Source: Escherichia coli
GTDB lineage: Bacteria; Pseudomonadota; Gammaproteobacteria; Enterobacterales; Enterobacteriaceae
DNA length: 64,000 nt
Reading direction: 5' to 3' (one strand)
NCBI RefSeq assembly: GCF_013315695.1
Contig: NZ_CP054353.1
Shown here: in pieces, positions 33,858 to 59,972 of the stretch
Layout: each line of letters begins with the position of its first letter
Numbering within the stretch: the first letter of the stretch is position 1
Made by a program: the position numbers and the translations under genes
The notes under the pieces: model-generated
What the model saw: only the letters and a program-made list of their open reading frames with translations
What the model was told of the DNA's origin: nothing
Database searches by the model: none

Positions 33858-35051
33858 ATGAAGAAAATTGTTCTGCCGGTTGCTCTGGCCCTGATGGGTA
33901 TAAATGCGGACGTTTATGCGGCCGATGTAAAGATCGATATTTTAAGTGCAACAGTGAAAGATAAACGCATTGAGGGGGCATCGGTGACGCTGCAACGCAA
34001 TGGCGCACAATCTGTTTCTGGCACCACAAATGCCTCGGGCAGCATTAATCTGGGCTCTTCCTTTGCCGATGATCAAGATGCTTTGTTAATCGTCAAAAAA
34101 GAGGGCTATTCTAATCTGGTGGTCAAATGCCCGTGTGCGGGCATGACTTATGCGATTAGTCCGGTAATGACTAGTCTGGATGGCATGCGTGTCGTATTGA
34201 GCTGGGGCGAAAAGCCTTTTGATCTTGATTCGCATTTGATCTTCCCTGGCGGACATATTTATTTTGATAGTAAAGAGGGGACTGATGCCAATCTGGATGT
34301 TGATGATACGGATAGCTATGGACCAGAAACTGTCACTATCAGCAAAAAGCATTTTGGCGAAAGTTACATCTATGCCGTGCAGGACTATAGCAATAAAGGG
34401 TTGCCCAACAGTAATTATCTCTCTGCCAGTAAGGCAAAAGTGTTTGTTTATGTAGGGGGCTCCCTGGTGCGTAGTTATAGTGTCCCTGCTGGAAAACGAG
34501 GGAACATCTGGACCGTGTTTAAACTCAATCCAAACGGCGAGTTTGAAGATATCAACTCTGTTACCACCGCCAATTTTAACGACACCACATTAGGCGTCAG
34601 GGATTTAGCCACTGTGATAATGCCTGCGACGGGTTCTTCAACTCCGGCTTCACCTGCGATGCAAAACAGTGGATATACTCAACTGGCAAGAAAATATAAT
34701 CGTGAAGGCGAAGCTGTTTACAAAACCGGTCAACTTGAGCAAGCCATTCAACTCTTCCAACAGGCAACAGAATTAGACGGCAATTACGGTCAGGCATTTA
34801 GTAACCTGGGTCTGGCTTATCAGAAAAATGGCAACATCGCGGAAGCGATTTGGGCAAATCGTAAAGCGATCTCGTTAGCCAGTGGAGCAAATGCGGCGAC
34901 AACGCGCGCTAACTCCTATTATAACATTGCCAAAATTTATGAAACTGCAGGACAGAACGCTGATGCATTGCAGCATTATCAACTCGCTTATGCGGAAAAA
35001 AATAAGCCCTCTTATGAAGAGGCCATCGCACGGGTAAAAGCGAAAATGTAG
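33858..35051 (+). CDS. Secreted protein with YfaP-like (DUF2135-type) central domain and C-terminal TPR repeats
   Basis: 397 aa; Sec signal peptide MKKIVLPVALALMGINADVYAA; motif LSWGEKPFDLDSHL...DANLDVDDTDSYGPETVTI as in YfaP-family proteins; C-terminal TPR-like repeats (AIQLFQQATELDGNYGQAFSNLGLAYQKNGNIAEAI...). First gene of the island. Confidence 0.7.
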   Translation: MKKIVLPVALALMGINADVYAADVKIDILSATVKDKRIEGASVTLQRNGAQSVSGTTNASGSINLGSSFADDQDALLIVKKEGYSNLVVKCPCAGMTYAISPVMTSLDGMRVVLSWGEKPFDLDSHLIFPGGHIYFDSKEGTDANLDVDDTDSYGPETVTISKKHFGESYIYAVQDYSNKGLPNSNYLSASKAKVFVYVGGSLVRSYSVPAGKRGNIWTVFKLNPNGEFEDINSVTTANFNDTTLGVRDLATVIMPATGSSTPASPAMQNSGYTQLARKYNREGEAVYKTGQLEQAIQLFQQATELDGNYGQAFSNLGLAYQKNGNIAEAIWANRKAISLASGANAATTRANSYYNIAKIYETAGQNADALQHYQLAYAEKNKPSYEEAIARVKAKM

Positions 35052-35428
35052 CGGTTAGCAAACAGGAGGCTATGTGGTGTTAGCCTCCTTACCCCCAGGC
35101 CAGTGGGAATATAGTAATCATCGTTTTTAACATTCAACGTCCAGATTCTGCTTGAGCGTAAAAACAAGTCTTTAGATATTTTATAAATGATGAAGGGCTG
35201 GAAAGTGGTTGATGTCACCGACTCACGATCGTTATCGCCAGCAAAGCTTTTTTGCCATTGCACCAGACGCACCTTCAACCATTTTGGCGACGAATCAACT
35301 GCTACCGCCACCAGGCTTGTTTGCCATTTTCCCGTACCTAATTCGTCGCTTGCCGCACTGTTGGCTGTAATCAATGGCCCAATGCCCAACCAGATACTTC
35401 TATATCCGATTGGGTTTTGTTAATTGCG

Positions 35429-36025
35429 TTACCCCTTAAACGTTAACCTCGGTCGAAATCTGACCGCTGGCTGAATTAATCCGGCTTCTTGTTGGGCTTC
35501 GATAACCGGACCAATATCTTTATAAGCAGCTGGCGCTTCTTCAATACGCCGTTCTTCGCGCAATGTGACGCATTGCCACGGCAACGTTGACTCTGCAGTC
35601 GCGCGTGAGCGCATGGCCTGCCGACGCTGGCTGCGTCCTGCTCCGTGACTGCAAGACCACAGCCACTCCGGGTTGCCGCAACCAACCGCAAGCCAGGAAT
35701 AATCACCCATGGAACCGGGGATTAACGCCAGATCGCCCGCGCGTGCCGGTGTTGTGGCCACCACAGCGCCAACGGGGACGCCATTGCCGGGATGAAAATC
35801 TGGCGTCGCGCACGTCTGGCGCACATAACCTGGGTGGTCTGGTAGCTTCACTTCTGCAAAATCAAGCAGTTGTGTTACTGCTTTTTCTTCCAGCGGCAGT
35901 TCGTCCGGCAGCAGTACGCGGGCACTGGCACCTGATGGACGAGATAATGAAACAATATTGTTGGCGCGGGAAAGTTGGATCCCTTTGCGCAGAAAGGCTT
36001 TATCAAGCCTTGAAAGATGATGCAT
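35429..36025 (-). CDS. Shortened RtcB-like protein (RNA-ligase family motifs, central region absent)
   Basis: 198 aa; N-terminal PDFHPGNGVPVGAV resembles the RtcB PDxHxG metal-binding motif, and the C-terminus (IPGSMG...CSHGAGR...AYKDI...FKG) resembles the RtcB C-terminus, but the motifs are about 50 aa apart instead of about 300. Confidence 0.55.
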   Translation of the reverse strand: MHHLSRLDKAFLRKGIQLSRANNIVSLSRPSGASARVLLPDELPLEEKAVTQLLDFAEVKLPDHPGYVRQTCATPDFHPGNGVPVGAVVATTPARAGDLALIPGSMGDYSWLAVGCGNPEWLWSCSHGAGRSQRRQAMRSRATAESTLPWQCVTLREERRIEEAPAAYKDIGPVIEAQQEAGLIQPAVRFRPRLTFKG

Positions 36026-36614
36026 AACGCTGTCCTGAAATATAGACGTTAAACAACCCCCTGTATTGCGAGGGTAATTTTGTCTTTCCGGTCAGCAGCC
36101 AGCAAAAGGGAAAGAAAACGCGCGTAGTGTATGTGGCGATAGCAAGTTTTACAAGTGGTAAATCTGGCTTATTGTTAAAGAGGAATTATCTTTTGTGAAG
36201 TCTTTTAAGGCCATGACTCATTCAATTTAACCGGACATAGATAATATATAACATAGGGTATATAAATTTATCATTGTATACTTGTCATAATTCAAGTTGC
36301 ATGTGCTGCATCGATGTTCGCTCACCCAGGTCACTTACTTATGTAAGTTTCTGGAAATTCATTATTTGTTCCCTTCCTGCAACTTGACTTATTTAGAGTA
36401 TATTCATGTATATGAATAATATTCTTGCAATAATAGCTTTAAAGTATTGCATGCGGATAACTGAGGTGAAATTCCTGTTTTAGGATTATTGTCACTTTAT
36501 TTTCCTGGTTAGACATATAGCTGACTGGTTTGTTTATTTGAATTATGATATTCATTAGTGCTACTGTTTTTTATAAAATAATTTTTGAATTGTTATTTTT
36601 TCACGGACGGCATT

Positions 36615-37520
36615 ATGCGAGGAAAAATACCTAAAACGGAACTGCTGGTGACTTTTGAGGTCGTCGCACGTCATGAAAGTTATACCAGAGCGGCAGAGGA
36701 GTTAGCGTTAACCCAAAGTGCAGTATTCAGACAAGTAAGTGCGCTGGAGGAATTTTTACATACTCCGTTATTTTCACACTCTAAAAAACGCATTTTTCTT
36801 AATGATGCAGGGAAGTATTACCTGGGGATAGTAAAAGAAACATTAAATAAGCTGGAACGCGATACCAATACCATTATGACCTGGCAGCCTACGGTTCAGG
36901 TTATTGAACTTGCCGTTAATCCTACTTTTAGTACCCACTGGTTAATCCCAAATTTACATGAATTCACAAAGTTACATCCCGATATTATTGTTAATATTCA
37001 TTCTTTAGCTAATAACGGCGACTTTCTTAATCGGGAGTACGATGCTGTCATTATGCGCGAAAATTTTTGCGCGCCCTGGGCGGAAGTAGAGTATCTCTTT
37101 GAAGAGGAGATTTTGCCGGTATGCAGCGGCAGTTTGCTTGCAATGTCCGATCAAAAACTGTCAGTGGCAGAACTGCTTACTGAGTTACCACTTCTGCATC
37201 AAAGCACCCGTATTACTGGCTGGGAAGAGTGGTTTGCTTTATCTGGCGTTAGCAGTCCGCTGGTCAATAACGGACCACGTTTCGATTTGCTTTCAATGCT
37301 GATTGCCGCCGTGCGCTCTAATCTCGGCGTGGCGCTGTTACCACGGTTCGCTATTCAACATGATTTGGATAGTGGCGATATGGTGATTCCCTGTGATGTG
37401 CCTATTCGTACCGGTAATCGTTTTATTATGACGTGGCAGGAAGAGAAGTCTGACTCACCGCACTTGCAGCAATTTCGTGAATGGTTGCTGGCGAAATCGG
37501 TCGTACCGCAGGAGATGTAA
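36615..37520 (+). CDS. LysR-family transcriptional regulator
   Basis: Start chosen at MRGKIPKTELLVTFEVVARHESYTRAAEELALTQSAVFRQVSALEE (N-terminal HTH) followed by a substrate-binding domain; divergent from the RtcB-like ORF and convergent with the cobA-like gene. Confidence 0.8.
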   Translation: MRGKIPKTELLVTFEVVARHESYTRAAEELALTQSAVFRQVSALEEFLHTPLFSHSKKRIFLNDAGKYYLGIVKETLNKLERDTNTIMTWQPTVQVIELAVNPTFSTHWLIPNLHEFTKLHPDIIVNIHSLANNGDFLNREYDAVIMRENFCAPWAEVEYLFEEEILPVCSGSLLAMSDQKLSVAELLTELPLLHQSTRITGWEEWFALSGVSSPLVNNGPRFDLLSMLIAAVRSNLGVALLPRFAIQHDLDSGDMVIPCDVPIRTGNRFIMTWQEEKSDSPHLQQFREWLLAKSVVPQEM

Positions 37521-37553
37521 AACCTGCGCCTGGCGGGATGCCAGGCGCAGTTA

Positions 37554-38156
37554 TTACCAGTCGATACCCGGCTGGGCCTGAATGCCGTTATCAAAAGCAT
37601 GTTTGACGGGGCGGATTTCGCTTACCGTATCCGCCATTTTTAATATCTGACTGTGGCAACCGCGTCCGGTGACAATGACACTTTGTTGTGCCGGGCGGTT
37701 TTGCAGAGAAGCGATCACTTCTTCGGTGTCCAGATAATGGTAAGCCAGCATATAGGTCAGCTCATCAAGCACCACTAAGTCGTAACGCTTGTCAGCCAGC
37801 ATCCGTTTGCTTTCCGACCAGACCTCTTTCGCCGCGTCGATATCCGCTTGCCGGTTCTGTGTCTCCCAGGTAAAACCGGTTCCCATAATATGAAACTCAA
37901 CCCCCAGCGGCTGGAGAAGGTTGTATTCGCCGTTGTCCCATTGCCCCTTGATGTACTGCGCAACCCCCACCGTTTTGCCATGACCCACCGCGCGCGTCAC
38001 AGTACCAAACGCGGCAGTGGATTTCCCTTTGCCGTTGCCGGTGAAAACAATCAAGATCCCTTTTTTCTCTATCGCCGCCGCGACGCGCGTATCGACCTGT
38101 TCCTTCAATTTCTGCTGGCGCTGCACATGCCGTTCAGTTGAAATTCGCGCTTCCAT
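37554..38156 (-). CDS. Cob(I)alamin adenosyltransferase (BtuR/CobA family paralog)
   Basis: 200 aa; P-loop GNGKGKSTAA and overall strong similarity to BtuR as recalled (...VFTGNGKGK.TAAFG...RAVGHGK.VGV.Q.IKG.W.NGE...); probably supplies adenosylcobalamin for glutamate mutase. Confidence 0.85.
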   Translation of the reverse strand: MEARISTERHVQRQQKLKEQVDTRVAAAIEKKGILIVFTGNGKGKSTAAFGTVTRAVGHGKTVGVAQYIKGQWDNGEYNLLQPLGVEFHIMGTGFTWETQNRQADIDAAKEVWSESKRMLADKRYDLVVLDELTYMLAYHYLDTEEVIASLQNRPAQQSVIVTGRGCHSQILKMADTVSEIRPVKHAFDNGIQAQPGIDW

Positions 38157-38165
38157 TCATTTTCC

Positions 38166-39818
38166 TTAATGTCCCGCAGGGCAACTGGCGCAGCGGTGTT
38201 TCTGCTCAAACTGACTAAAGAAATTATTGCCTTTATCATCTACCAGGATGAATGCGGGTAAATTTTCCACTTCCATCATCCACACCGCTTCCATACCCAG
38301 CTCCGGGTATTCCAGGCAACGCAGACTTTTGACATATTCTTGCGCCAGTAACGCAGCTGCACCGCCAATACTTCCCAGATTGAAGCCGCCATGTTTGTGA
38401 CAGGCATCGGTGACCTGCTGGCTGCGGTTACCTTTCGATAACATCACCAGACTGCCGCCAGCCGCCTGGAAGGTATCGACATAACCGTCCATTCGACCGC
38501 CCGTGGTTGGACCCAGTGAACCGCAGGCCATGTTCTCCGGTGTTTTCGCCGGGCCAGCGTAATAGACAATATGATGCTTCAGGTAATCCGGCATCGGTTC
38601 GCCGCTATCCAGCCGCGCTTTTATTTTGGCGTGGGCGATATCGCGCGCCACTACGATGGGACCACTTAACGACACGCGGGTGCCTACCGGTAATCTGGCG
38701 AGATCCTGCATCACGTCACGCAACGGACGATTTAGATCCAGCTGTACATGTTGCGCGTGATTTTCTTCCCGCAGTGAGGCTGGAATATATTGCCCCGGAT
38801 TGTGTTCGAGTTTTTCCAGCCAGATACCGTGCTTGTTAATTTTTGCTTTGATATTGCGATCCGCAGAACAGGAGAGCGTCATAGCTATCGGGCAAGAGCC
38901 ACCGTGACGCGGCAGACGAATGACGCGAATATCATGAGCGAAATATTTACCCCCAAATTGCGCACCAATACCAAATTGCTGACTGGCCTCGAGCAATACT
39001 TTTTCCAGCTCAATATCACGGAATGCTTGTCCTTGCTCGTTTCCGCTGGTGGGCAAATTGTCGTAATATTTCGTTGAGGCCAGCTTGGCAACTTTTAAGG
39101 TTTGATCGGCTGAAAGCCCTCCGACGACAAAGGCGATGTGGTAAGGCGGGCAGGCAGCGGTGCCCAGCGATTTCATTTTTTCGATTAAAAATGCGGTCAG
39201 TTTTTCTGGTTGCAATAGGGATTGGGTTTCCTGATAAAGCGCGGCTTTATTGGCAGAGCCGCCCCCTTTATTAATACAGAGAAAATGGTACTCATCACCA
39301 GCGACGGCGCTGATATCAATCTGCGCCGGGAGATTGGTTTGCGTATTGACTTCGGTAAACATATCCAGTGGCGCATTTTGTGAAAAGCGCAGATTATTTT
39401 CCTGAAAAGTGGTGTAAATGCCTTTGCTTAAGGCTTCAGCGTCGTTACCTCCGGTCCATATCTGTTGCCCTTTACTGGCAACAATAGTTGCGGTGCCGGT
39501 ATCCTGACAGTTGGGTAATACCCCTTTTGCTGAGACTTCAGCATTACGTAATAACTGCAACGCAACGTATTTATCATTACTACTGGCGTGCGGATCGTTA
39601 AGAATGCTGGCGACCTGTTGCAAATGAGCGGAACGTAAGAAAAAAGAGGCTTCATAAAATGCCTGCCGGGCAAGCAGCGTTAATGCTTCAGGAGCGATTT
39701 TTATCACTTCTTCGCCGTCTAATTCCGTTACTGTAATATGTTGATCGCTAATTAATGTATATTCTGTACCGTCTTTATTTTGTAGAAACGGTTCTTGCCA
39801 GATAAATGGTTTGGACAT
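38166..39818 (-). CDS. fumD: Class I (Fe-S) fumarate hydratase paralog; mesaconase/fumarase
   Basis: 550 aa, collinear with FumA/FumB ([11 protein letters not shown]...[12 protein letters not shown]...[14 protein letters not shown]...[13 protein letters not shown]...). I recall a mesaconase named FumD from an E. coli O157:H7 glutamate-mutase cluster; symbol given on that basis. Confidence 0.88.
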
Positions 39819-39925: not shown

Positions 39926-41206
39926 TCAGGGCAGAGCAACGTTCGATTCATTGGGTTTTAATGCTTTACCCCGACAGCCCTCGCCGAAATGTTCGCCTTC
40001 CCACCGACTCACCATCGCAGCGCCCATTGCGTTGCTCATGACGTTTGTCGCGGAACGCCCCATATCAAGGAACGGATCAACGCCCATCAGCAAGATCAGC
40101 CCCGCTTCCGGAATATTGAACTGGTTGAGCGTGGCGGCGATAACCACCATTGAGGCGCGTGGTACGCCAGCCATTCCTTTCGAGGTCAACATCAGGATCA
40201 ACAGCATGGTGATTTGCTCACCGATGGATAAATGGATATTGCAGGCCTGGGCGATGAAAACTGTGGCGAAGGAGCAGTAGGCCATTGATCCAACGAGATT
40301 AAATGAGTAGCCAATGGGTAAGACAAAGCTGGCAATTTTGGGGGAAACGCCAAATTGCTCCAGTTTTTCAAGCGTTCCCGGAAAAGCCGCTTCAGAACTG
40401 GATGTGGTAAATGCCAGCAGGGCGGGTTCCGAAAGGGCACGGGTCAGGCGTCTGATGCAGGGGCCGACATAAACGATGGCCAGACCGATAAGCAGCACCC
40501 AAAGTAACAACATGGTGAAATAAAATTCACCCATAAAGATCCCGGCGCTCACCATAACTGCCAGTCCTCGTTCAGCAATCAATGCTGAAATAGCGGCGAA
40601 TACGGTCAGGGGAGCGAAGAGCATGACGTAGCCAGTGAGCTTTAACATGGCATGTGCCAGCGAATCTAAGGCGTGAACGATGGCGCTGCCTTTCTCACCA
40701 ATCGCCGTCAGGCTACAGCCGAGGAAAATTGAGAACACCACGATTTGCAAAATTTCATTGTGCGCCATGGCATCGACAATGCTGGTGGGGAAAGCATGCG
40801 AAATAAATACTTTTAGTGTAAAGGGTTCTGACGCGACCACTCCGGTGGTTTCGGCACCGTGTGCAACAAAATTAATTCCTGTGCCTGGCATGAAGAAATT
40901 TACCGTTATCAAGCCTAAGGCAATTGACAGCAATGAGGCGCAAATAAATAAAAAGAGTGTTTTAGAAAAAATACGACCAAGGGCTTTGGCATCTCCCATT
41001 TTAGCTATACCTACCACCAGGGTAGAGACCACTAACGGAGCGATAATCATTTTTATCAGTCGTAAGAAAATCGTCGTGAATATCGATATTTCTTGCGCAT
41101 AGAGTTTTGCGGTTTCCGGTGAAGCAGTGTTATTGAGCACTACGCCGATAATCATTCCAAGTACCAGCGCCAAAAGAATCATCGTGGTTAAACTTATTTT
41201 CTTCAT
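39926..41206 (-). CDS. Dicarboxylate/amino acid:cation symporter (DAACS; GltP/DctA-like)
   Basis: Start at MKKISLTTMILLALVLG (ATG 41206, GGAGG RBS); polytopic membrane protein with DAACS-type conserved segments; substrate (glutamate, mesaconate or citramalate) is not decidable from sequence. Confidence 0.85.
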   Translation of the reverse strand: MKKISLTTMILLALVLGMIIGVVLNNTASPETAKLYAQEISIFTTIFLRLIKMIIAPLVVSTLVVGIAKMGDAKALGRIFSKTLFLFICASLLSIALGLITVNFFMPGTGINFVAHGAETTGVVASEPFTLKVFISHAFPTSIVDAMAHNEILQIVVFSIFLGCSLTAIGEKGSAIVHALDSLAHAMLKLTGYVMLFAPLTVFAAISALIAERGLAVMVSAGIFMGEFYFTMLLLWVLLIGLAIVYVGPCIRRLTRALSEPALLAFTTSSSEAAFPGTLEKLEQFGVSPKIASFVLPIGYSFNLVGSMAYCSFATVFIAQACNIHLSIGEQITMLLILMLTSKGMAGVPRASMVVIAATLNQFNIPEAGLILLMGVDPFLDMGRSATNVMSNAMGAAMVSRWEGEHFGEGCRGKALKPNESNVALP

Positions 41207-41366
41207 TTTTTCCTCCATCAGGTGCACGGCGATAAATCAGAATCAGGAGAAGTAGATGCCTGAATAGAGATTCAGGCATCTACCTGCTATTACAACCTTA
41301 CAAATAGCTGAAGTGTTGAACTGCAATAAGTGACGGGATGTCAGTTGGCTAAAAGTATTCGGATTT

Positions 41367-41684
41367 TTACAAATCGAAACTCATATTTAATAAAGGTGCA
41401 TGTTGCTGTGCACCATAGACATCATTGTCACCTACATTCCCGGAGATAATATCTCGTGGCATGACGATTTTTACTGCGTTAGAAGGATCAAACCAGACAA
41501 TACGGTGAATAAAGTCAGGTTCAACATGATATAAGCGCGCAATCAGTTCTGGGGTTAATTGCCCTGATGATTTAACTCGCTCATAGTTTTCTTTCGTTTT
41601 AAATAAAATATCTAAAACCAGTTCGTAAGGTCCGGCATTTTTCGAACGAATGACTTGCGCCAGTGAGACAATTGACTGTTTCAT
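41367..41684 (-). CDS. Small conserved protein, DUF4387-like partner of the AtuA-like protein
   Basis: 105 aa; start overlaps the stop of the upstream DUF1446 ORF by 4 nt (translational coupling); family assignment from memory. Confidence 0.55.
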   Translation of the reverse strand: MKQSIVSLAQVIRSKNAGPYELVLDILFKTKENYERVKSSGQLTPELIARLYHVEPDFIHRIVWFDPSNAVKIVMPRDIISGNVGDNDVYGAQQHAPLLNMSFDL

Positions 41685-43051
41685 GCCTGAACTCCTTCTG
41701 GCGTCACCTGTTCAATATGGAAATCAAAACGCAGAGCGTCGTTGGCTTCAATCAGGTGATATATGGAAAATTCGTATACCGGCCCGCCCTGGATATCAGA
41801 AGGGGAGAACGGGAACGCCAGATTGCCTGCGGTAGCGATGCGGTTTTCATAGCCGTAGTGCAGCATGGTAGAGCGCACCAGCGAGCAAACGCTATTGGCA
41901 ATTTCCTGGGTCGGTGCAACTACATCAAGGACAATCCCCAGCTCATGCCCGGCAGTTTGCATCGGTTCATGGTCGCCCATCACCCCGTTTTTGCCGTACA
42001 GGTGGAAATTGATGCGAATGCTGTCATCGTCGAGCGACAGGTTACGCCAAACGCTGGTTTTGACTTCATCGATGATTTTATCGATCCCGGCGATCATGAT
42101 CGGGTCGCGCGTTCCTGCGATGGTCAGACAGCGGAAGCCCACCCGTCGCGCACCTTCCAGTTTCAGGGCATACGGCGTTTCTTCATGCTTAGAACCGCTG
42201 ACGTACACTTCGCCGTCATTGACCGCTTTAAATGTGCAGCCTTTCAGGTTCAACACGCCGCCAGGTCCAGGCAGGAAGTAGGGATCGGATTTCTCATACA
42301 GTGTGTGTGCAGCCGCTGACGTTTCGGTAAATTTACGCTTCGGATTAAATGTCTTCAGCGTAAAGCCGTTGTCATCAATGATGCCCATCGCACAGTCAGA
42401 GCCTGAGCCGGGCGTTGCGGCGATTGCCGCGCATTCAAGGATTTTCCCACAATGCAGCGCCAGACCTTCATCAAAGCCTTGCATGATCGGGAGCGCAGCA
42501 AAGCAGGCCGGGTCGTAAGCGCGCCCGCCCAGCACCACTTGCGCGCCTTCTTTCAGCGCCCGCTGGAAGGGTTCGATGCCCATTTGCGCGACGATATACG
42601 TACTTTCGTCAATCGCGTCGTGGGTTAACGGCGGGACAAAATCCAGCGCCGTGATTTTGCCGTTATCCAGCGCCTGGTGGACGATGGCTTTGTCAACGTC
42701 TGCCGGGATCAACGCCATCGAGAACGAGAGGTGCTCTTCCTGGGCAATCTCATGAATTATTTCTCGGCACCACTCCAGGTGTGGTGCGGCACCAGAACCG
42801 CCAGCTGTTCCGATCACCACCGGTATATTATTTTGCACGCCTGCGGTGATCATATAGCGCAGATCGCGCTTGACCCCTGCGCGATCGGTAAACGGTTTGC
42901 CTGCCCCGAGGTAGTGGGGGCCTGGATCGGAAGAGCCTGCATCAACGGCGATCAGATCGGGCGATTCTGCCATCGCTTTGCGGAAGCTCTCTTCCGGGAA
43001 TCCATACCCGAGGATTGCCGTTGGCGATAAGACTTTAAAAGAACGAGCCAT
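41681..43051 (-). CDS. AtuA-like protein (DUF1446 family), function unknown
   Basis: 456 aa; N-terminal G-Y-G-F...D-A-G-S region resembling the DUF1446 signature; starts 3 nt after the methylaspartase stop. Confidence 0.65.
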   Translation of the reverse strand: MARSFKVLSPTAILGYGFPEESFRKAMAESPDLIAVDAGSSDPGPHYLGAGKPFTDRAGVKRDLRYMITAGVQNNIPVVIGTAGGSGAAPHLEWCREIIHEIAQEEHLSFSMALIPADVDKAIVHQALDNGKITALDFVPPLTHDAIDESTYIVAQMGIEPFQRALKEGAQVVLGGRAYDPACFAALPIMQGFDEGLALHCGKILECAAIAATPGSGSDCAMGIIDDNGFTLKTFNPKRKFTETSAAAHTLYEKSDPYFLPGPGGVLNLKGCTFKAVNDGEVYVSGSKHEETPYALKLEGARRVGFRCLTIAGTRDPIMIAGIDKIIDEVKTSVWRNLSLDDDSIRINFHLYGKNGVMGDHEPMQTAGHELGIVLDVVAPTQEIANSVCSLVRSTMLHYGYENRIATAGNLAFPFSPSDIQGGPVYEFSIYHLIEANDALRFDFHIEQVTPEGVQA

Positions 43052-43054
43052 TTG

Positions 43055-44296
43055 TTAATCCTTAGCCTGCAACAGCGCGATAGTACGATTCATTTCGTTG
43101 AAGACGATATCGAGGCCTTCGTCAAAGCCCATCCCTGGCTTTACCAGCATACGCATAGGGCGAGCGGCAAGGGCGACGTGGACACAGGTGCGGGCACTGA
43201 CATCAGTTTCATTGCAGGTGCCGCCCTGGTACGCTTCCATGCTGTGGCTGTTGCAGTAAAGAACCGCATCGACGATGTTGTGAATACTGCCCAGATCCGG
43301 GGTTTTGATTTGCACCATGTGACAACTGGCGGCATCAGTGAAATCAACAATATCCTGGTAGGTGTTACACCATTCATCGGCCACAATTTTCACGCCGGAA
43401 CCGAGGCGCGTCAGCTCTTTGGTAATCGCGGTCAGCAGGCGAATTTGATCGGGCTTGTTACCGGCATCGACCGGCCCTTCAATGTAGAGCGGCAGGCCTT
43501 GCGCTTCTTTTTCCAGGCTGGCGATGTATTGCGCACAGCGAAGCGGATCCATATCGAAGATCAGGCCGATAGTGCCGTATACATCGATGTGCAGGGTTGG
43601 GTGGTAGCGTGCGCTGGTGCGCTTGCTCAGAATACGATCCGACAGCCAGCGGACATATTCGCGCAGTTTTTCACCTTTAAAGCCCAGTTTCTCTTCGACG
43701 TTATTAATCAGTGCATGGGGCAGCACGTCGATGCCCTTAAGGATCATCTTATCGACGGCGATATATCGATCGTCCCCGCTCTGACCAAATAATGGAATGG
43801 ATTCCGCCACGCGTGGCAACTGCCATTCATCACAGACCACTTCAGTTTTCAGACGGCCGGTTGCCAGCGCGGTAGCATCAAGCAGCGCCTGTGATAATCC
43901 GTAGCGCACGGCGGTATGCAGCAAGTTGCCGTCAATACGCAATTTGTCGAAGAAACGGGCATTCGGCAGGAAAGCATCCACATCGCGGCCTATCAGTAAT
44001 GGCTTGATATGGTCGTTGAGGAACGGAATAAAGTGCTCAGCGAGGAACAGTGGATCGCGACCACCTGCCCCGGAATACTGTACGGCAGCACAGTCACCTA
44101 CGGCGACCGCGCCGTTTTCCAGAATCAACTGTACCGATACGCACTCCCCGGCCTGACGAACGGCGTTAAACCCCTGTGTTACCGGCTCCCCGGTATAAAA
44201 AAAGCCGTCATGACCCGCTCCGTTTTTTATCGCCTGCTGGTCATCGAAATAGAATGAGGAGTAGCCAGCAGTGAACAGAGCCTGTTTTATTTTCAT
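43055..44296 (-). CDS. 3-methylaspartate ammonia-lyase (beta-methylaspartase)
   Basis: 413 aa; very close to clostridial MAL as recalled: ...YFDDQ.AIK.GAGHDGF.YTG...AVQYSGAGGRDPLFLA...QSGDDRY..VDKMI.K..DVLPHALINNVEEKLG.KGEKL...HMVQIKTPDLG...GGTCNET. Confidence 0.92.
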   Translation of the reverse strand: MKIKQALFTAGYSSFYFDDQQAIKNGAGHDGFFYTGEPVTQGFNAVRQAGECVSVQLILENGAVAVGDCAAVQYSGAGGRDPLFLAEHFIPFLNDHIKPLLIGRDVDAFLPNARFFDKLRIDGNLLHTAVRYGLSQALLDATALATGRLKTEVVCDEWQLPRVAESIPLFGQSGDDRYIAVDKMILKGIDVLPHALINNVEEKLGFKGEKLREYVRWLSDRILSKRTSARYHPTLHIDVYGTIGLIFDMDPLRCAQYIASLEKEAQGLPLYIEGPVDAGNKPDQIRLLTAITKELTRLGSGVKIVADEWCNTYQDIVDFTDAASCHMVQIKTPDLGSIHNIVDAVLYCNSHSMEAYQGGTCNETDVSARTCVHVALAARPMRMLVKPGMGFDEGLDIVFNEMNRTIALLQAKD

Positions 44297-45741
44297 TATG
44301 GTCTTCCTATTAATTTACTGTGGGATACAGCATTGATGTCATCTACAACCATCTGGAATGTCGGTTGGCGTCCTTCAAAGCGTGCGCGTTCCGCAACGTA
44401 ATCGTGGTGGAGGTCGAGAATATCTTTTGGCAATGGAACGGCTCCGGCTTCCAGTACGCGTATCGCGCCGGTGTTGTCACGGACCGGAAGAATTTTGCCC
44501 GCGTTGCAGGCGGCTGGCGCAAACGGCACATCCAGTACGCCCGCTTCAAATGCCAGCACCGTACCGCGCGCAATATCACCATTACCCAGTTCGAACACTT
44601 TATTCAGTACCGCGTGAACCTCGCTCTTAATCAGTTCAATTTCCAGTTCAACCGCAGGGCACGGCGGGAATTTCTGCTCGTTGACCATGTTGAGCATCTG
44701 GCGGGAGGCTTTCAGCCCCTGAATGTTGGCAGCGGCAGTCGGGATGCCCCAGGCTTCGTGCGGACTTTTGGTGATGACTTTGGTGGCACCAGACATCCCC
44801 GCGACGGCTGCGCCCCAGGAGATAATAGCGAACGCTTTCGATTCGTCTTCCGGAAAGCCGCCCATCCACTGGTGAAACACGGTACTTAATTCATAGTCGG
44901 TATAGCCATAGCTCTGAAAATATTCGTGTGCAAGTTCACGCAGAGACTGGATCGCCGCAACATCCTGCGTCAGGCTGCCGACCTGTCCATAACCAACGGT
45001 GATAGATTTCACACCCTGTTCCAGCGCCAGTAATCCTTCGATTATCGCGATAGAGTGCGAGATAAACGGCGGGATCAGGGTACCCGTTAGTGGGCCAAAC
45101 GGTTCGCGGTTGATGCGGATCCCGTGTTCTTCATACATCCCCATTAAACGGTCGCAGTACTGCCAGTCGCGGATCGATTTTTCCAGCGTTACGCGCTTGG
45201 CATACGGAATGTTGTAGGAAATGCCGCCGCCTTCATAACTGGTAAAGCCGCTGGCCATCGAGATTTCAGCCAGCAGACGCGCATCTGGCGTGCCGTGGCG
45301 GATCTGTAGCGGTTTTTGCAAAGTTTCGGTGAGGCGACGGCAAGCTGCGACGCCGTGGTTAACGACCGGTAAACCGTTCAGTTTAGAGGTTCCGGCTTCG
45401 ATGGATTTTTTAATCCCTACAGCCGCTTCTTCGTACCGATTCAGACGGGTATATGCGTCGATGGTGCTCGGCAGCAGATCGCATTCTTCTTGTAGTGTTT
45501 TCAGTAGTTCGATGTGTTCGTCCATCAGCGCCACGCCTGCGCGCGGTTGGCTAAGAGTTTTACCTTCCTTGTCTGCTTTCAGCAGGGCAAGAGAGAAGCG
45601 TTTATGCTCAGGAATGGTTTGTTGGTATTTAACGCCATCTTCAAAGTTTTCAACATCCTTGCCGGTTTCCCAGGTTTTCAGTACCTGTTGCCGCTCGGTC
45701 ATGAATTCGTCATGGGTTAATTTCTTATTTCGAAGTTCCAT
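44296..45741 (-). CDS. Glutamate mutase epsilon (E, catalytic) subunit
   Basis: 481 aa; collinear with clostridial GlmE/MutE (MELRNKK...QPRAGVAL.DEHIELL...LPSTIDAYTR.NRYE...GTPD.RLLAEI...EGGGISYN.PYAK...FQMV.DDI.AV). Confidence 0.92.
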   Translation of the reverse strand: MELRNKKLTHDEFMTERQQVLKTWETGKDVENFEDGVKYQQTIPEHKRFSLALLKADKEGKTLSQPRAGVALMDEHIELLKTLQEECDLLPSTIDAYTRLNRYEEAAVGIKKSIEAGTSKLNGLPVVNHGVAACRRLTETLQKPLQIRHGTPDARLLAEISMASGFTSYEGGGISYNIPYAKRVTLEKSIRDWQYCDRLMGMYEEHGIRINREPFGPLTGTLIPPFISHSIAIIEGLLALEQGVKSITVGYGQVGSLTQDVAAIQSLRELAHEYFQSYGYTDYELSTVFHQWMGGFPEDESKAFAIISWGAAVAGMSGATKVITKSPHEAWGIPTAAANIQGLKASRQMLNMVNEQKFPPCPAVELEIELIKSEVHAVLNKVFELGNGDIARGTVLAFEAGVLDVPFAPAACNAGKILPVRDNTGAIRVLEAGAVPLPKDILDLHHDYVAERARFEGRQPTFQMVVDDINAVSHSKLIGRP

Positions 45742-45759
45742 TGATTGCAGCCTTAATTG

Positions 45760-47148
45760 TTATAGGGTTAAGCATTGAATACTGGTGCGCGCGGCGGCCA
45801 GCGGATCGACTCTGGCGACGTTTGCCAGCAGTGGTAATAGCCCCCGGGAATCGCGGTAATATTCAAATTCGGTCGGTAAGAGAATGCGTTTACCGTCGTC
45901 GTTTAACTCGCGGTATTTCAACCAGTGATGCATATCGAACTGACTGGCACGCGAGAGCCATCCGCCGGATCCGACGACTTTACGCACGGTTGTCAGGTCA
46001 CGTCCCATCTGTAAATCGACATTGCCGACGCAGGTGCAGACCTCTTTTTTGGTGCCCGCATGTCTTTCGGTGGCATAACCCACACACAGTCCGGCCAGGA
46101 CTGTATCGAAATATTTTTCTTCTGCATTCGCGGGTAAGTAGTCGGGATGAGCGACTAGATGACGGAGGTAATGATAAAAAGCGTCCAGCTGTGCGGGTTG
46201 CTGAGCAAAATTCACATTGACTAACTCTTTCGCACTTTCACCAACCACCATTGCCGAGACGCGCATTCCCAGATCGCCTTCCACCGTCCGTTTCACGAAG
46301 GGTTCCGGTACGCCGTGTAAAACGGTGTCGGGCGAGAGCGTGTTGGCACAGGCGGAATAGACATCGGTGGTTGCGCCACCCATGTCGATCAGTATGAACT
46401 CTTTCCAGCTGTGATCGACATTACTGATTGCCTTAACCAGTTCAAAGACTGTCCACGGTGTCGGCATTGGTTCTTCGCCTGTTTTATCAACAACGACATC
46501 CAGCCCTTTCCCTTTAACGATGCGTTTAAGGAATATGTCGCAGATAGCCTGGCGTGCAGCTAAAGGGTTCGGATGGTCAAGATCGGGCAGAACGTTGTCG
46601 ACGATGGTCAGGTCTTTATGCCCTAGGATCTCCTGCACCTCGTCCTGAATATCCCGGTTTCCGGCATAAATAATGGCGCAGTCGAGTTTGGATTCTGCCA
46701 GCACACGGGCGTTATTCAGGCCGTAGCTTTCTTCTCCGCCGTCGGTGCCGCCGGTGAACAAGAGAATATCGGGCTGCGTTTCTTCCAGTGCCTGGATATC
46801 ACGGCGGTTCAGCTTGTAGGAGTAATATTGCGCAATTTTAGCCCCCGCAGAGTGAGCGGTTACTTTCGCGGTTTCCAGGGTGATAGAAGGCACCAATCCC
46901 ATTGCGGCAACCGCCAGCCCACCTTTGGCAGAGGAGGAATACTTCAATGCAACCTCACCGTTGTTAAACAGGGGGAGGGTATTATCTACGTTTAACACCA
47001 GGTTCAGGCTGGAGAAAAACCCCTTCGCCAGATGATGGGTGGTGGTTGGGGTCAGTACGTGGTTAACCAACGTTAACGCGTCCCCCTCCCGGGCGAAGAG
47101 GGCTGCTTTGGTCCACGTCGATCCAATATCGACAGAGACGATTTGCAT
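45760..47148 (-). CDS. Glutamate mutase-associated protein L (GlmL/MutL-type putative chaperone or reactivase)
   Basis: 462 aa; N-terminal [18 protein letters not shown] (ASKHA/actin-like ATPase start); sits between the S and E subunit genes as in clostridial mutS-mutL-mutE. Confidence 0.8.
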   Translation of the reverse strand: MQIVSVDIGSTWTKAALFAREGDALTLVNHVLTPTTTHHLAKGFFSSLNLVLNVDNTLPLFNNGEVALKYSSSAKGGLAVAAMGLVPSITLETAKVTAHSAGAKIAQYYSYKLNRRDIQALEETQPDILLFTGGTDGGEESYGLNNARVLAESKLDCAIIYAGNRDIQDEVQEILGHKDLTIVDNVLPDLDHPNPLAARQAICDIFLKRIVKGKGLDVVVDKTGEEPMPTPWTVFELVKAISNVDHSWKEFILIDMGGATTDVYSACANTLSPDTVLHGVPEPFVKRTVEGDLGMRVSAMVVGESAKELVNVNFAQQPAQLDAFYHYLRHLVAHPDYLPANAEEKYFDTVLAGLCVGYATERHAGTKKEVCTCVGNVDLQMGRDLTTVRKVVGSGGWLSRASQFDMHHWLKYRELNDDGKRILLPTEFEYYRDSRGLLPLLANVARVDPLAAARTSIQCLTL

Positions 47149-47597
47149 CAGATTGCCTCTTCAAGAATACGAGTATCAACGTCATGACGTTGGTTGATAT
47201 CGTGTGCCATCAGCTGACAAACATCTTCTAAGTCATGACTTGGGGCAAAGACGCGATCAAATCCCATCTCTTTGAATTTGGTTTCCACGTCAGCGAAGTC
47301 ATGTTTTCCGACCACCAGGTTACCGCCCACATAGAGCAGGATGTCCCCCAGTCCACGCTCGATGCAGCGTTCGCGCATGCCCAGACAGTCGATATCGCCA
47401 TGCCCATAGATAGAGGAGACGACAATCGCGTCAGCGCCAGTTTCAATGGCCGCATCAATATATTCGTCCTGGCTGACCATTACGCCCAGATTAATGACTC
47501 TGAAGCCATGGTTGCTAAAAACGCGGTCCAGAACTTTATTGCCTACTGCATGGCAGTCCGCGCCAATAACGCCAATCACAAGTGTTGCTTTCTTCAT
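47148..47597 (-). CDS. Glutamate mutase sigma (S, B12-binding) subunit
   Basis: Start at ATG 47597 ([27 protein letters not shown]...), 149 aa; B12-binding DxHxxG motif; AAGGA RBS. Track ORF with the longer N-terminus is rejected. Confidence 0.9.
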
Positions 47598-48143
47598 GGG
47601 TAATCCTTTGTAAGACAGAGAGTAAAATAAGTTACACACGTCGTATTTATGGCCGTTCATAACGGCACAGGTTTAATATCACAGGAGTGTCTTTATCTGA
47701 CCGTAATGTTGCAATTGATCTATTTTCAAAATGTCTTTCGGGAAATGATTGTTTAAAGTATGTTGTTAAATTCTCATGTTAATTCAGTGTGTTATGTCAA
47801 CTAATGTCATGAATGTTAAATTTTTAAAATTAACTTGATTTGGTGTATTGAGGTATTTGTGATCTACTTCTAATTTGCATTTTAGTGATATGGGTTTAGC
47901 CATGAGTAAATGCATTTCATAAAATTTAAGTCGAATTTCACTGCAATTCATCTCTGCTTAATGTAAAAATAATGTTGAAAATAACAAATGGTTAATGATT
48001 CATGCGAATTATGACCTTAGTTAGCTCTTTTGATTTTTCGTAAAAAAGAGAGGTACATGAAGGTGCTACCAGTATGAGTAACGTTAATCAAAGGTTTTAT
48101 TACGTCTGGCAATAACGCAGGCCATTTTCGCGACTGGGTGGAT

Positions 48144-48566
48144 TTAATCAGTATAATCCTCATACAATAGTTCACGATTAACTGAACCGTTAACGGGGAT
48201 TTGGTGTTGAAATTTAGAAATGGCGGAGTCAATTAATGAAGACAATATCGAAAAAATGACAGTGTCAGAATTAATTTCAATTAATCCTTCTCGTTGTTGA
48301 CCAAAAAAGATATTTATCTTGATTTCATTTGTACTACGGCAATCAATATGTAGTAATTTTTGATCGCTGAGATTTTCTGTTTCATAAATGTTTTTGGCGA
48401 TAGTCGGATGTATTGATGCCAGACATCTGCTCAGATAAGCCAGATCCTTTAGGGAACACCCCGCTGAGTAGAGGATGTCAGAGAATTTTTGTGTGTTAAC
48501 TGTTGTCTCTGAAGCGTATGTTGCATTGACAGGAAGGGTGTTGAAAGAGATTTGAGATGGGAGCAT
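48144..48566 (-). CDS. Hypothetical protein (low-GC, no recognisable domain)
   Basis: 140 aa ORF 80 bp downstream of the 314-aa ORF on the same strand; no signal peptide or TM helix apparent. Confidence 0.4.
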   Translation of the reverse strand: MLPSQISFNTLPVNATYASETTVNTQKFSDILYSAGCSLKDLAYLSRCLASIHPTIAKNIYETENLSDQKLLHIDCRSTNEIKINIFFGQQREGLIEINSDTVIFSILSSLIDSAISKFQHQIPVNGSVNRELLYEDYTD

Positions 48567-48646
48567 TATTTAAATCTTTCCGTGAGTAATAAAAATTAAT
48601 CCCCGGGCATTGTTTAGCAATATTTGCCACAGGTAATATATAAAAA

Positions 48647-49591
48647 TTAAAGTATTTGATTGGCATCGGTTAACTGATCAATAACCAGTGCCAGATTGGT
48701 AAACATTTTGAAAAAGCGATACTGGCTCGGAATATCTCTTTCAAAGACGAAACATTCAATGTCATTGTTTGAAAAATAAAGGACTAGTGTTGCTGATTCG
48801 TCAGGAAAAATATGGAAATATATCTGGTTACCAGAAGGAGGATAGTCCAGAAGAAGGGTATCTTTGCCCGTCACATACCTGTTGTGGTCGTGGATGCTGC
48901 GCTCACACTTCATCAGAGGTGTCATGATACTCATGTATTCATCTGATGTTAATATATTAAAATCACCATCCATTTTAAAGAAACGATAAAGTAACAGTAC
49001 ATCCTCTTGCGTAACCGGTTCGTTTGTTTTTAGAGGGAAATAAGTGGGAACCAGAAGATGAGGTTCTAATCTATTTTGTTGAGCGCTATAACTAAATTTG
49101 AACATAAATTCCGGATCGCTCATCAATTGAGCGACATAATTATGCCTGGCTTCAAAAATTTTAACTTTTATCAGGTTAAATAAGTCTGTTTCGTCATCCT
49201 GTATTAAAAGACATTGGCCATAGCAGCCAGGCTTTTTTTCATTATAAGCAGAAACGGTTATTCTGTCAGGAGTGTCAACGTTATATCCAAAAGCCAGATA
49301 GTGACCGTCCTCATCGAGATTTGTTTCCAGGTTATTTAAATTTATCACATGAAGTGTTTGCAATGCTGATTCAATGAGCTGTTGACTCTCTGAGGTAAAT
49401 GTTTCGCGCTGCGTTGTATAAAGTGTATCGATTCCAACGACTATCCGATATGGGTCAAGGATGGCGGCAATCATCTTTATTACCTGCACAGCCACGGGTG
49501 ATGTCATTGATTCGTTATCTGTTTTTAGAGGATCATTAGATGGCCAACCTGAGAAGCGATTGACAGCCGAACCGATATTATCAGGACTCAT
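48647..49591 (-). CDS. Hypothetical protein (low-GC, no recognisable domain)
   Basis: 314 aa ORF in a strongly AT-rich stretch (roughly 38-40 percent GC by eye); acidic, apparently soluble; no family recognised. Confidence 0.5.
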   Translation of the reverse strand: MSPDNIGSAVNRFSGWPSNDPLKTDNESMTSPVAVQVIKMIAAILDPYRIVVGIDTLYTTQRETFTSESQQLIESALQTLHVINLNNLETNLDEDGHYLAFGYNVDTPDRITVSAYNEKKPGCYGQCLLIQDDETDLFNLIKVKIFEARHNYVAQLMSDPEFMFKFSYSAQQNRLEPHLLVPTYFPLKTNEPVTQEDVLLLYRFFKMDGDFNILTSDEYMSIMTPLMKCERSIHDHNRYVTGKDTLLLDYPPSGNQIYFHIFPDESATLVLYFSNNDIECFVFERDIPSQYRFFKMFTNLALVIDQLTDANQIL

Positions 49592-57966: not shown

Positions 57967-58512
<546 letters not shown>

Positions 58513-58521
58513 GAGAATTGC

Positions 58522-59313
58522 ATGAGCAGTAACTTCAGACATCAACTATTGAGTCTGTCGTTACTGGTTGGTATAGCGGCCCCCTGGGCCGCTTTTGCTC
58601 AGGCACCAATCAGTAGTGTCGGCTCAGGCTCGGTCGAAGACCGCGTCACTCAACTTGAGCGTATTTCTAATGCTCACAGCCAGCTTTTAACCCAACTCCA
58701 GCAACAACTCTCTGATAATCAATCCGATATTGATTCCCTGCGTGGTCAGATTCAGGAAAATCAGTATCAACTGAATCAGGTCGTGGAGCGGCAAAAGCAG
58801 ATCCTGTTGCAGATCGACAGCCTCAGCAGCGGTGGTGCAGCGGCGCAATCAACCAGCGGTGATCAAAGCGGTGCGGCGGCATCAACGACGCCGACAGCTG
58901 ATGCTGGTACTGCGAATGCTGGCGCGCCGGTGAAAAGCGGTGATGCAAACACGGATTACAATGCAGCTATTGCGCTGGTGCAGGATAAATCCCGCCAGGA
59001 TGACGCAATGGTGGCATTTCAGAATTTCATCAAAAATTACCCTGATTCAACTTTCCTGCCAAACGCCAATTATTGGCTGGGTCAGTTAAACTACAACAAG
59101 GGTAAAAAAGATGATGCGGCGTACTATTTTGCTTCGGTAGTGAAAAACTATCCGAAGTCACCAAAGGCTGCAGATGCGATGTTTAAAGTCGGCGTCATCA
59201 TGCAGGACAAAGGTGACACCGCAAAAGCGAAAGCCGTATACCAGCAGGTTATCAGTAAATACCCTGGTACTGATGGTGCTAAACAGGCGCAAAAACGTCT
59301 GAACGCGATGTAA
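58522..59313 (+). CDS. cpoB: Cell division coordinator CpoB (YbgF), TPR protein
   Basis: 263 aa; signal peptide, coiled-coil, TPR repeats. Confidence 0.93.
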   Translation: MSSNFRHQLLSLSLLVGIAAPWAAFAQAPISSVGSGSVEDRVTQLERISNAHSQLLTQLQQQLSDNQSDIDSLRGQIQENQYQLNQVVERQKQILLQIDSLSSGGAAAQSTSGDQSGAAASTTPTADAGTANAGAPVKSGDANTDYNAAIALVQDKSRQDDAMVAFQNFIKNYPDSTFLPNANYWLGQLNYNKGKKDDAAYYFASVVKNYPKSPKAADAMFKVGVIMQDKGDTAKAKAVYQQVISKYPGTDGAKQAQKRLNAM

Positions 59314-59477
59314 TGCATAACACACGACCAGAAGTCGCATTATTTCTGGTCGTGTCGTGCGAATCATAAGCAGTTGAGTGATCTACATCGAAATTTTTGT
59401 TGCGCTCAAGTCTGAAATCAGTAATATATGCCGCCGTTGCCACGGGATATCAAACAAACCGAAAGCAACGAAAAAGT

Positions 59478-59553
59478 GGGTCGTTAGCTCAGTTGGTAGA
59501 GCAGTTGACTTTTAATCAATTGGTCGCAGGTTCGAATCCTGCACGACCCACCA
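59478..59553 (+). tRNA. lysT: tRNA-Lys (anticodon UUU)
   Basis: 76-nt GGGTCGTTAGCTCAGTTGGTAGAGCAGTTGACTTTTAATCAATTGGTCGCAGGTTCGAATCCTGCACGACCCACCA with encoded CCA; anticodon loop cTTTTaa. Confidence 0.95.
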
Positions 59554-59599
59554 ATCGCTAAGGTGGAAGCGGTAGTAAAACGTGAAGGATAACGTTGCG

Positions 59600-59653
59600 T
59601 CAGCAACGGCCCGAAGGGCGAGACGAAGTCGAGTCATCCTGCACGACCCACCA
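59600..59653 (+). repeat. tRNA-Lys 3'-fragment relic in the lysT-valT spacer
   Basis: ...GGCCCGAAGGGCGAGACGAAGTCGAGTCATCCTGCACGACCCACCA repeats the tRNA-Lys acceptor/T-arm 3' end and is near-identical to the segment at 60380-60437. Confidence 0.55.
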
Positions 59654-59688
59654 CTAACATAGTTAGTTGTAGTATCCAGCGTAGTATT

Positions 59689-59764: not shown

Positions 59765-59766
59765 CC

Positions 59767-59842: not shown

Positions 59843-59893
59843 CTAATGACGGTGGGTTCGGTGGAAGTAGTTTGTAGTATCCAGCGCAGTATC

Positions 59894-59969: not shown

Positions 59970-59972
59970 CTC

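Follow-up and report, generated by a model that had tools for sequence, protein, structure and literature searches.

Which genes does a LysR-type regulator control when it is transcribed away from one neighbor and towards the genes of a metabolic pathway? The question arises at an island in the variable region between sucD and cydA of the Escherichia coli chromosome, which encodes a B12-dependent route from glutamate to citramalate and is present in O157:H7 and in many opportunistic enterobacteria. In the window (the whole 64-kb stretch of DNA that was analyzed), the initial annotation placed a LysR-type regulator gene divergent from an RtcB-like ORF and convergent with cobO-fumD, and this geometry is borne out by Pfam and RefSeq. 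Assignment of the regulator to the island, together with one sharply conserved candidate operator, would offer a handle on when and why the pathway switches on.

Gene coordinates were taken from the RefSeq annotation of isolate AF3 (NZ_OZ547117), to which the window is 100% identical over 35000-38200. The order runs from sucABCD through a TPR protein gene and a hypothetical ORF to the RtcB-family remnant (minus strand) and lysR (plus strand), continues with cobO, fumD, gltP, DUF4387, atuA-like, mal, glmE, glmL, and glmS (all minus strand), and passes, beyond glmS, through two hypothetical genes to cydAB. The features concerned are the following:

35429..36025, minus strand: RtcB-family remnant, 198 aa (Pfam RtcB; BLAST against the intact gene)
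36615..37520, plus strand: lysR-type regulator gene, 301 aa, GcvA-subfamily LTTR, intact (Pfam, RefSeq WP_001214260.1)
37524..37550, no strand assigned: GC-rich hairpin between the lysR and cobO stop codons, 11-bp stem with 9 GC pairs
37554-38156, minus strand: cobO (ATP:corrinoid adenosyltransferase; Pfam, RefSeq)
38166-39818, minus strand: fumD (class I fumarase/mesaconase; Pfam, RefSeq)
39926..41206, minus strand: gltP-like dicarboxylate/amino acid:cation symporter gene (Pfam SDF, RefSeq)
41367..47597, minus strand: glmS-glmL-glmE-mal-atuA-like-DUF4387, methylaspartate pathway genes (RefSeq; Pfam in orthologous loci)

The island holds a glutamate mutase cluster in which glmS, glmE, and glmL stand together with the methylaspartate ammonia-lyase and mesaconase genes (RefSeq, identical genome), and Pfam B12-binding, MutL, Met_asp_mut_E, MAAL, and Fumerase matches are found in the orthologous loci. 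lysR and every cluster ORF are intact within the window, and FumD has been characterized biochemically (PMC4682846). The hairpin at 37524-37550 has a T-run on the minus strand and is terminator-like for the cobO transcript.

The regulator and its relatives

The 301-residue product carries the two domains of a LysR-type transcriptional regulator (LTTR), namely an HTH_1 domain (PF00126, residues 9-67, E = 7e-18) and a LysR_substrate domain (PF03466, residues 96-293, E = 4e-28). In this architecture, in length, and in its best NCBIfam and solved-structure matches (the nearest structure being GcvA 8y6u, E = 7e-43), it resembles GcvA and the GcvA/DsdC/AmpR branch, whose regulators control amino-acid-related catabolism; it differs from GcvA in scoring 221.5 bits against the GcvA family model NF008352, below the cut-off of 288, in sitting within a methylaspartate island, and in having a candidate glmS site (see below) without the GcvA-type CTAAT motif. 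Judged by these profile scores, the protein is a relative of GcvA rather than GcvA itself and an uncharacterized member of the GcvA/DsdC/AmpR branch. Its recognition helix reads TQSAVFRQ, compared with TQAAVSHQ in GcvA.

The true start of lysR is taken to be ATG 36615, because MRGKIPKT is the N-terminus of every orthologue and similarity to other genera sets in at about 36605; a longer, TTG-started ORF from 36585 was rejected on the same evidence. The gene is intact and under strong purifying selection, with dN/dS values of 0.11 against O157:H7 and 0.04 against E. whittamii, dN of 0.08-0.12 against other genera (where synonymous sites are saturated), and 99-100% conservation within its E. coli lineage.

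The regulator has been noted before, as the 'LTTR' of Fig. 5 in Kronen and Berg (2015; PMC4682846), a putative LysR-family regulator in the enterobacterial glutamate-fermentation cluster. It is the same gene, beside cobA/cobO and fumD in E. coli O157:H7 and relatives, although the lineage of the window differs in having, upstream of the gene, what is left of RtcB and a replacement spacer with an ERIC repeat. That study analyzes neither the regulator nor its sites or neighbors, and it found no conditions that express the cluster genes (PMC4682846). Methylaspartate ammonia-lyase in E. coli O157:H7 ATCC 700728 has been below 0.1 mU/mg, too low to detect. A literature search for experimental work on this regulator found none beyond that study. 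The clostridial glutamate-fermentation clusters likewise have a cluster-linked regulator beside the same pathway genes, albeit one of another family, the GntR type (PMC4682846, Fig. 4), and they include genes for citramalate lyase, missing from the enterobacterial island. Otherwise, then, the case is a routine one of a pathway-specific LysR regulator of putative function, and the conserved box upstream of glmS is the only part for which no earlier description was found.

Linkage to the methylaspartate pathway across genera

Synteny was surveyed in one genome per species by mapping the window proteins onto the 38 loci returned. Of the 36 informative genomes in which the orthologue is 80% or more identical, 34 have lysR convergent with an immediately adjacent cobO-fumD pair and the glm genes beyond it; these 34 include Citrobacter spp., Salmonella enterica arizonae/diarizonae, Klebsiella oxytoca, K. 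grimontii, K. michiganensis, Enterobacter, Lelliottia, Pluralibacter, Buttiauxella, E. whittamii, and Escherichia sp. Different lineages carry different genes upstream of lysR (sumT, a PocR-like AraC gene, sucD, and others): Citrobacter has a divergent uroporphyrinogen-III methyltransferase gene and a PocR-like AraC regulator gene, Salmonella and Klebsiella have the PocR-like gene alone, and unrelated genes occupy the position in other lineages. RtcB was seen in only two Escherichia-type contigs among the 38 loci, and no case of RtcB adjoining lysR occurred in the other genera examined.

More distant orthologues were collected by protein search and context look-ups, with Yersinia, Morganella, Yokenella, and Paludibacterium making up a set of 45-63% identity. 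Their arrangements, and that of one metagenome contig, are as follows:

Metagenome contig, LysR identity 72%: O157-like arrangement
Yersinia enterocolitica, 63%: lysR-fumD-cobO co-directional, beside the glm operon
Morganella, about 62%: lysR is the last gene of the cob operon and converges on cobO-fumD; the distance to the glm genes exceeds 10 kb
Yokenella, 57%: lysR transcribed away from an operon that holds B12-uptake genes and then glmS-glmL-glmE-mal
Paludibacterium (a betaproteobacterium), 45%: LTTR and glmS adjacent and divergent, with a 246-bp spacer between them

Two paralogues of 68-69% identity occur in unrelated contexts (Trabulsiella, C. portucalensis), so the orthologue group is defined by context and not by identity alone. 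Within that group, no regulator type other than the LTTR accompanies the cluster in every lineage compared. The regulator thus very probably belongs functionally to the methylaspartate island and not to RtcB, and the expectation that the metabolic operon is its target is backed by an LTTR-pathway linkage spanning some 34 species. The odd orientation in the window, divergent from RtcB and convergent with the operon, appears to be explained by rearrangement of the island once these relatives are compared.

A candidate operator upstream of glmS

The regions upstream of glmS were fetched by exact GlmE look-up and aligned for 8 taxa from 5 genera, and two conserved elements stand out:

47711..47731, minus strand: near-invariant 21-mer TTTTGAAAATAGATCAATTGC, candidate LTTR site of the glmS promoter (8-taxon alignment)
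47854..47864, minus strand: second conserved block GATCACAAAYA, about 143 bp upstream of the box (invariant alignment columns)

In the first element, hereafter the box, 20 of 21 positions are invariant across the 8 taxa, as against a mean column identity of 65% for the alignment and flanks; a TTGA-N7-TCAA dyad of the T-N11-A type lies within it at 47715-47729, and 113 nt separate it from the glmS ATG (47597). The 21-mer is unique in the 64-kb window, with 0.01 matches expected even when 3 mismatches are allowed, and among approximately 50 loci it is found only upstream of glmS, in every locus that covers that region. The exact sequence recurs in the metagenome contig whose LTTR is 72% identical, and variants occur in Yersinia (TTATTACAATAAATCAATTGT), Yokenella (TCTTCAAATTTTATCAATTGC), and Morganella (TATATCAATTGTT), all three of which keep the core ATCAATTG. 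When 241 million metagenome records were scanned with TTYTGAAAATAGATCAATTGC, 52 matches were returned, 38 of them with a glmS start 87-116 bp downstream; 6 further contigs end too near the match to be judged, and the other 8 matches represent two independent chance occurrences in the coding sequence of organisms of 27-32% GC. Every judgeable enterobacterial match has glmS at this distance of 87-116 bp. The second block, GATCACAAAYA, recurs in Yokenella and Morganella, and no box similar to the first was found in the LTTR-glmS spacer of Paludibacterium.

No consensus sigma-70 promoter was found on the glmS strand, which fits activator dependence. Visual inspection places TTGCAA-17-GACACT immediately after the box and a conserved TATTAA slightly further downstream; depending on the glmS start, the box could be centered near -43 or near -56. 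It might be either an activation or a recognition site, or another protein might bind there.

As the LTTR alone among the regulators is retained with the pathway in all lineages, we infer that it is the binder of the box and the controller of the glmS operon. The reading that we prefer, and hold to be rather probable from comparative evidence, is of a dedicated GcvA-subfamily LTTR of the B12-dependent methylaspartate island that acts in trans at the candidate glmS box; the narrower claim that it works through this particular box stands at about even chances. Under the preferred reading, the island placed under the regulator would comprise glmS-glmL-glmE-mal-atuA-DUF4387, gltP, and fumD-cobO. 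The protein would bind the TTGA-N7-TCAA dyad at 47715-47729 and would probably activate (rather than repress) a weak sigma-70 promoter of glmS in an effector-dependent manner, the effector being, at a guess, a small molecule related to the pathway (glutamate, methylaspartate, mesaconate, or citramalate, for example). The arrangement may be compared with the divergent LTTR-operon pairs CbbR-cbb, BenM-ben, and NodD-nod, which it recalls in the divergence of the Paludibacterium and Yokenella orthologues from the glm operon and, in the window, in a candidate T-N11-A dyad upstream of a poor-consensus promoter. In contrast to those pairs, the regulator gene of E. coli and most Enterobacteriaceae occupies the distal 3' end of the island in convergent orientation, so that the regulator would have to act in trans on a glmS promoter approximately 10 kb from its own gene, and no autoregulatory site for lysR is evident in the E. 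coli arrangement.

Some observations bear on how closely regulator and box can be tied. The recognition helix is also conserved in the 68-69% identical paralogues outside the cluster; helix conservation therefore does not single out the glmS box. Escherichia, Enterobacter, Buttiauxella, Yersinia, and Yokenella lack the PocR-like gene, and each of the five keeps the box or its core. Upstream of lysR, gltP, and fumD in the approximately 50 loci, no copy of the box was found at up to 5 mismatches, bar a weak match at fumD in Yersinia, and the control of those units in E. coli, as well as autoregulation, is thus not accounted for by the model. In non-Escherichia genera, a block TCATGGnnTGGATCAATGAC upstream of lysR, absent from the window, shares GATCAAT with the glmS box; the similarity extends to a half-site only, and the block could be an autoregulatory site.

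The strongest competitor, which we regard as unlikely while granting it more weight than the other alternatives, is that the island regulator acts mainly on fumD-cobO and/or gltP and that the protein at the glmS box is a different one, for instance an FNR/CRP-family or other global regulator. Its appeal lies in cobO-fumD being the steadiest neighbor of lysR (convergent in E. coli, Citrobacter, and Morganella, co-directional in Yersinia), in Morganella, where the glm genes lie more than 10 kb from lysR yet keep the ATCAATTG core, and in a box-like AGAGAACAATTGC upstream of the Yersinia fumD. The pathway is, moreover, anaerobic, and the right half of the box, ATCAA, is an FNR half-site, so a global anaerobic FNR-like regulator could act there. 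FNR sites have the spacing TTGAT-N4-ATCAA, however, and the TTGA-N7-TCAA spacing of the box is wrong for FNR and its left half matches poorly, on which grounds a by-eye assignment as an FNR site was rejected. Against a main action on fumD-cobO or gltP also stand the regulators of Yokenella and Paludibacterium, whose genes diverge from the glm operon and have no fumD close by, and the lack of a conserved box upstream of fumD or gltP in E. coli. Two further assignments in the glmS upstream region were tried and rejected: the box as a sigma-54 promoter, there being no GG at -24 by eye, and the upstream GATCACAAA block as a CRP site, which has a perfect TCACA half and a weak left half and lies about 190 bp from plausible starts.

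The spacer upstream of lysR and the RtcB-like neighbor

The AT-rich intergenic region of about 590 bp described in the initial annotation measures 589 bp (36026-36614) and has 33.8% GC, compared with approximately 50% in its flanks. It is composite, and its parts are as follows:

36026..36133, no strand assigned: RtcB-proximal part, 108 bp, 94-99% identical to RtcB-adjoining DNA at three other loci (L003, L038, L049)
36134..36596, no strand assigned: lineage-specific AT-rich segment, 463 bp, in 144-150 of 5,426 E. coli genomes
36277..36402, no strand assigned: ERIC/IRU-type intergenic repeat, an imperfect palindrome with 25-nt inverted arms at 36277-36301 and 36378-36402
36521..36549, plus strand: best sigma-70-like pair of hexamers ahead of lysR, CTGACT-17-TATGAT (by consensus match alone)

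The first part is common to RtcB-bearing E. coli, and the last 18 bp (36597-36614) are common to all Escherichia lysR genes. The segment between them, 36134-36596, is without similarity to the approximately 260-bp lysR upstream region shared by O157:H7, IMT16316, and MOD1-type Escherichia, from which we infer that the native lysR promoter region was replaced in this lineage; the segment is present only in the same 144-150 E. coli genomes, and a search for its source identified none. The sigma-70-like pair lies within this segment, 66 bp before the lysR ATG. Loss of the native promoter means that the regulator may be poorly expressed in the lineage.

The expectation of LysR-type T-N11-A sites in this spacer found no support. 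It contains 72 instances of T-N11-A, compared with 61.7 +/- 5.7 in dinucleotide shuffles, and 11 with dyad symmetry, compared with 11.5 +/- 3.2; the sole perfect palindrome, TTTACAAGTGGTAAA at 36148-36162, compares with 1.2 expected by chance, and no copy of the glmS-type box occurs in 36026-36614 at up to 5 of 21 mismatches. The T-N11-A search thus had a divided outcome, with chance-level counts in the lineage-specific spacer and a strong, conserved candidate site upstream of glmS, though there, too, the T-N11-A counts equal the shuffled expectation. Scanning for the motif alone was therefore uninformative and was rejected as a site finder in both regions.

The RtcB-like ORF was compared with an intact RtcB paralogue in strain 7/2 (1,398 bp, 465 aa, spanning Pfam RtcB profile positions 7-426). 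BLAST aligns the two in a pair of blocks with a 9-bp overlap, which indicates an in-frame 801-bp internal deletion with its junction at about 35746-35754, and the protein alignment shows that residues 92-358 of 465 are missing, leaving the RtcB domain incomplete. The stretches DISCG, GSGNHF, and HSGSR, which we take to be the metal- and GTP-binding motifs of RtcB, fall inside this gap. The junction is found in 5 of 5,426 complete E. coli genomes, and, on its sequence, the ORF is a dead remnant.

Nor is RtcB a constant companion of the regulator in E. coli at large. lysR, and with it the island, is present in 1,134 of the 5,426 complete genomes (about one fifth), of which 144 (13%) match the RtcB-spacer-lysR stretch, the others matching only from window position 36597 on. 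At the lysR locus of O157:H7, sucD lies upstream of lysR in the same direction and RtcB was not found; in IMT16316, a six-gene hut (histidine utilization) cluster separates RtcB from lysR. The adjacency is best regarded as accidental, the apparent product of island rearrangement in one E. coli lineage and probably without regulatory meaning. Such a rearrangement would have swapped the native lysR promoter for AT-rich, ERIC-bearing DNA and, in five genomes, left RtcB internally deleted.

These changes could also be read as signs that the regulator and island are decaying or silenced in the lineage, with a replaced lysR promoter and an arrangement that has no current regulatory function, a view that we consider improbable. 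It draws on the break in similarity to the lysR upstream DNA of other Escherichia, 18 bp ahead of the ATG, on the internally deleted RtcB next door, on the failure to induce the cluster in O157:H7, and on damage to cluster genes in relatives (cobO is truncated and gltP is missing in E. whittamii and E. sp. E1V33, and glmE of S. arizonae contains a stop codon). It is countered by the integrity of lysR and of all cluster ORFs in the window, by the near-identity of lysR across the lineage and the purifying selection on it, by the sigma-70-like pair ahead of lysR, and by an intact glmS box.

The dedicated-regulator reading can be taken a step further, although we advance the extension only tentatively: the LTTR and the glmS box may be the missing on-switch of the cryptic methylaspartate pathway in pathogenic enterobacteria, which the ERIC-bearing promoter swap may have rewired or uncoupled in the 144-genome lineage. 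If so, an overexpressed or effector-independent regulator would awaken a cluster that could not be induced in O157:H7, and the inducer of the pathway and the fate of citramalate would be revealed.

Least probable by far is control of the divergent RtcB-like gene, the partner first proposed for the regulator, from sites in the shared 589-bp spacer, since the textbook arrangement of LTTRs as divergent gene pairs, the 144 E. coli genomes in which both genes share this spacer, and the perfect palindrome TTTACAAGTGGTAAA are outweighed by an adjacency seen in only 13% of lysR-positive E. coli and in none of the other genera examined, by the hut operon between the genes in IMT16316-type strains and a lysR without RtcB in O157:H7, by an RtcB copy lacking residues 92-358, and by a spacer of lineage-specific DNA with an ERIC element in which a single perfect dyad is no more than chance would supply.

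The ERIC element is itself a common feature of the species. The repeat at 36277-36402 fits the ERIC/IRU family, an imperfect palindrome of about 127 bp with many intergenic copies, and copies were found in 5,425 of 5,426 E. coli genomes (median 6 per genome); the ERIC2 primer sequence matches at 36319-36340 with 2 mismatches. An Rfam scan of 35000-38500 and of the region near glmS found no riboswitch or known RNA, its sole match being V_AS5 at a sub-threshold 19.9 bits (threshold 96), which falls on the ERIC hairpin, a structure of -37 kcal/mol with z = -5.0.

Conserved elements and a possible transcript end around the glm genes

Beyond the glmS box, the conserved 21-mer upstream of glmS that carries the dyad TTGA-N7-TCAA and is a candidate site for the LysR-type regulator, the glmS upstream region contains a second conserved block, and further elements were located at either side of the glm genes and elsewhere in the window:

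47854-47864, minus strand: GATCACAAAYA block, approximately 143 bp farther upstream than the glmS box
48144-49591, minus strand: two ORFs (140 and 314 aa) in the glmS-cydA interval
41262-41293, minus strand: hairpin GTAGATGCCTGAAT...ATTCAGGCATCTAC with a perfect 14-bp stem, between DUF4387 and gltP
58413-60278: CpoB/ybgF thermometer, seven tRNA genes, and an RtT element

The GATCACAAAYA block is invariant across eight taxa and is found in Yokenella and Morganella too; it resembles a CRP right half-site, yet no plausible transcription start is near it. tRNA anticodon arms account for the five extra TTGA-N7-TCAA matches in the window. Neither the 140-aa nor the 314-aa ORF has a Pfam match. In Citrobacter and Klebsiella both are missing from the equivalent position, and glmS and cydA are immediate divergent neighbours. 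At the other side, the hairpin, which was only partly picked up by the terminator scan, may mark the end of the glmS transcription unit.

Decay of the island in relatives

The methylaspartate-pathway island is partly decayed in E. whittamii and Escherichia sp. E1V33, in which cobO is present only as a fragment (L004 6004-6138 and L005 3997-4257, respectively) and gltP is missing, with lysR, fumD, and the glm genes kept. In the type strain Salmonella enterica subsp. arizonae CCUG 6322T, glmE (L036 17733-19175) is interrupted by an internal stop codon and is possibly a pseudogene. Two lysR contigs (L003, L008) come from the metagenome-assembled genome 'Citrobacter sp. HRGM_Genome_0066', one of E. 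coli type at 100% identity and one of Citrobacter type at 87%; the bin is probably mixed.

A possible additional regulator, and B12 and catabolic genes, near lysR

A PocR-like AraC regulator gene is located just upstream of lysR in Citrobacter braakii (L015 7920-9640) and at the corresponding place in Salmonella arizonae/diarizonae and in the Klebsiella oxytoca group, accompanied in Citrobacter by a uroporphyrinogen-III methyltransferase gene. Its product, which scores 275 bits against the NCBIfam PocR model (under the cut-off of 500), is a possible second regulator of the island; the gene is absent from E. coli. Other gene sets adjoin lysR or glmS in individual genomes:

L052 5190-9772 (Yokenella regensburgei), same strand as glmS, upstream of it and divergent from the LysR-type regulator gene: B12-uptake-type genes (FecCD permease, ABC ATPase, TonB-dependent receptor, periplasmic binding protein)
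L049 3007-10748 (E. coli IMT16316): hut cluster (hutU, permease gene, hutD, hutI, hutG, hutH-like)

The complete hut cluster separates the RtcB paralogue from lysR in some E. coli (IMT16316 and L003). Glutamate is a product of histidine degradation and the substrate of the adjoining methylaspartate pathway. Between sucD and the RtcB gene, strain 7/2 carries mngR-mngA-mngB, in place of which the window has a gene for a TPR-repeat protein and an ORF of 125 aa without a Pfam match (33858-35389). The annotation of one strain, E. coli elppa5, places an IS200C transposase gene inside the region homologous to window 35428-38200.
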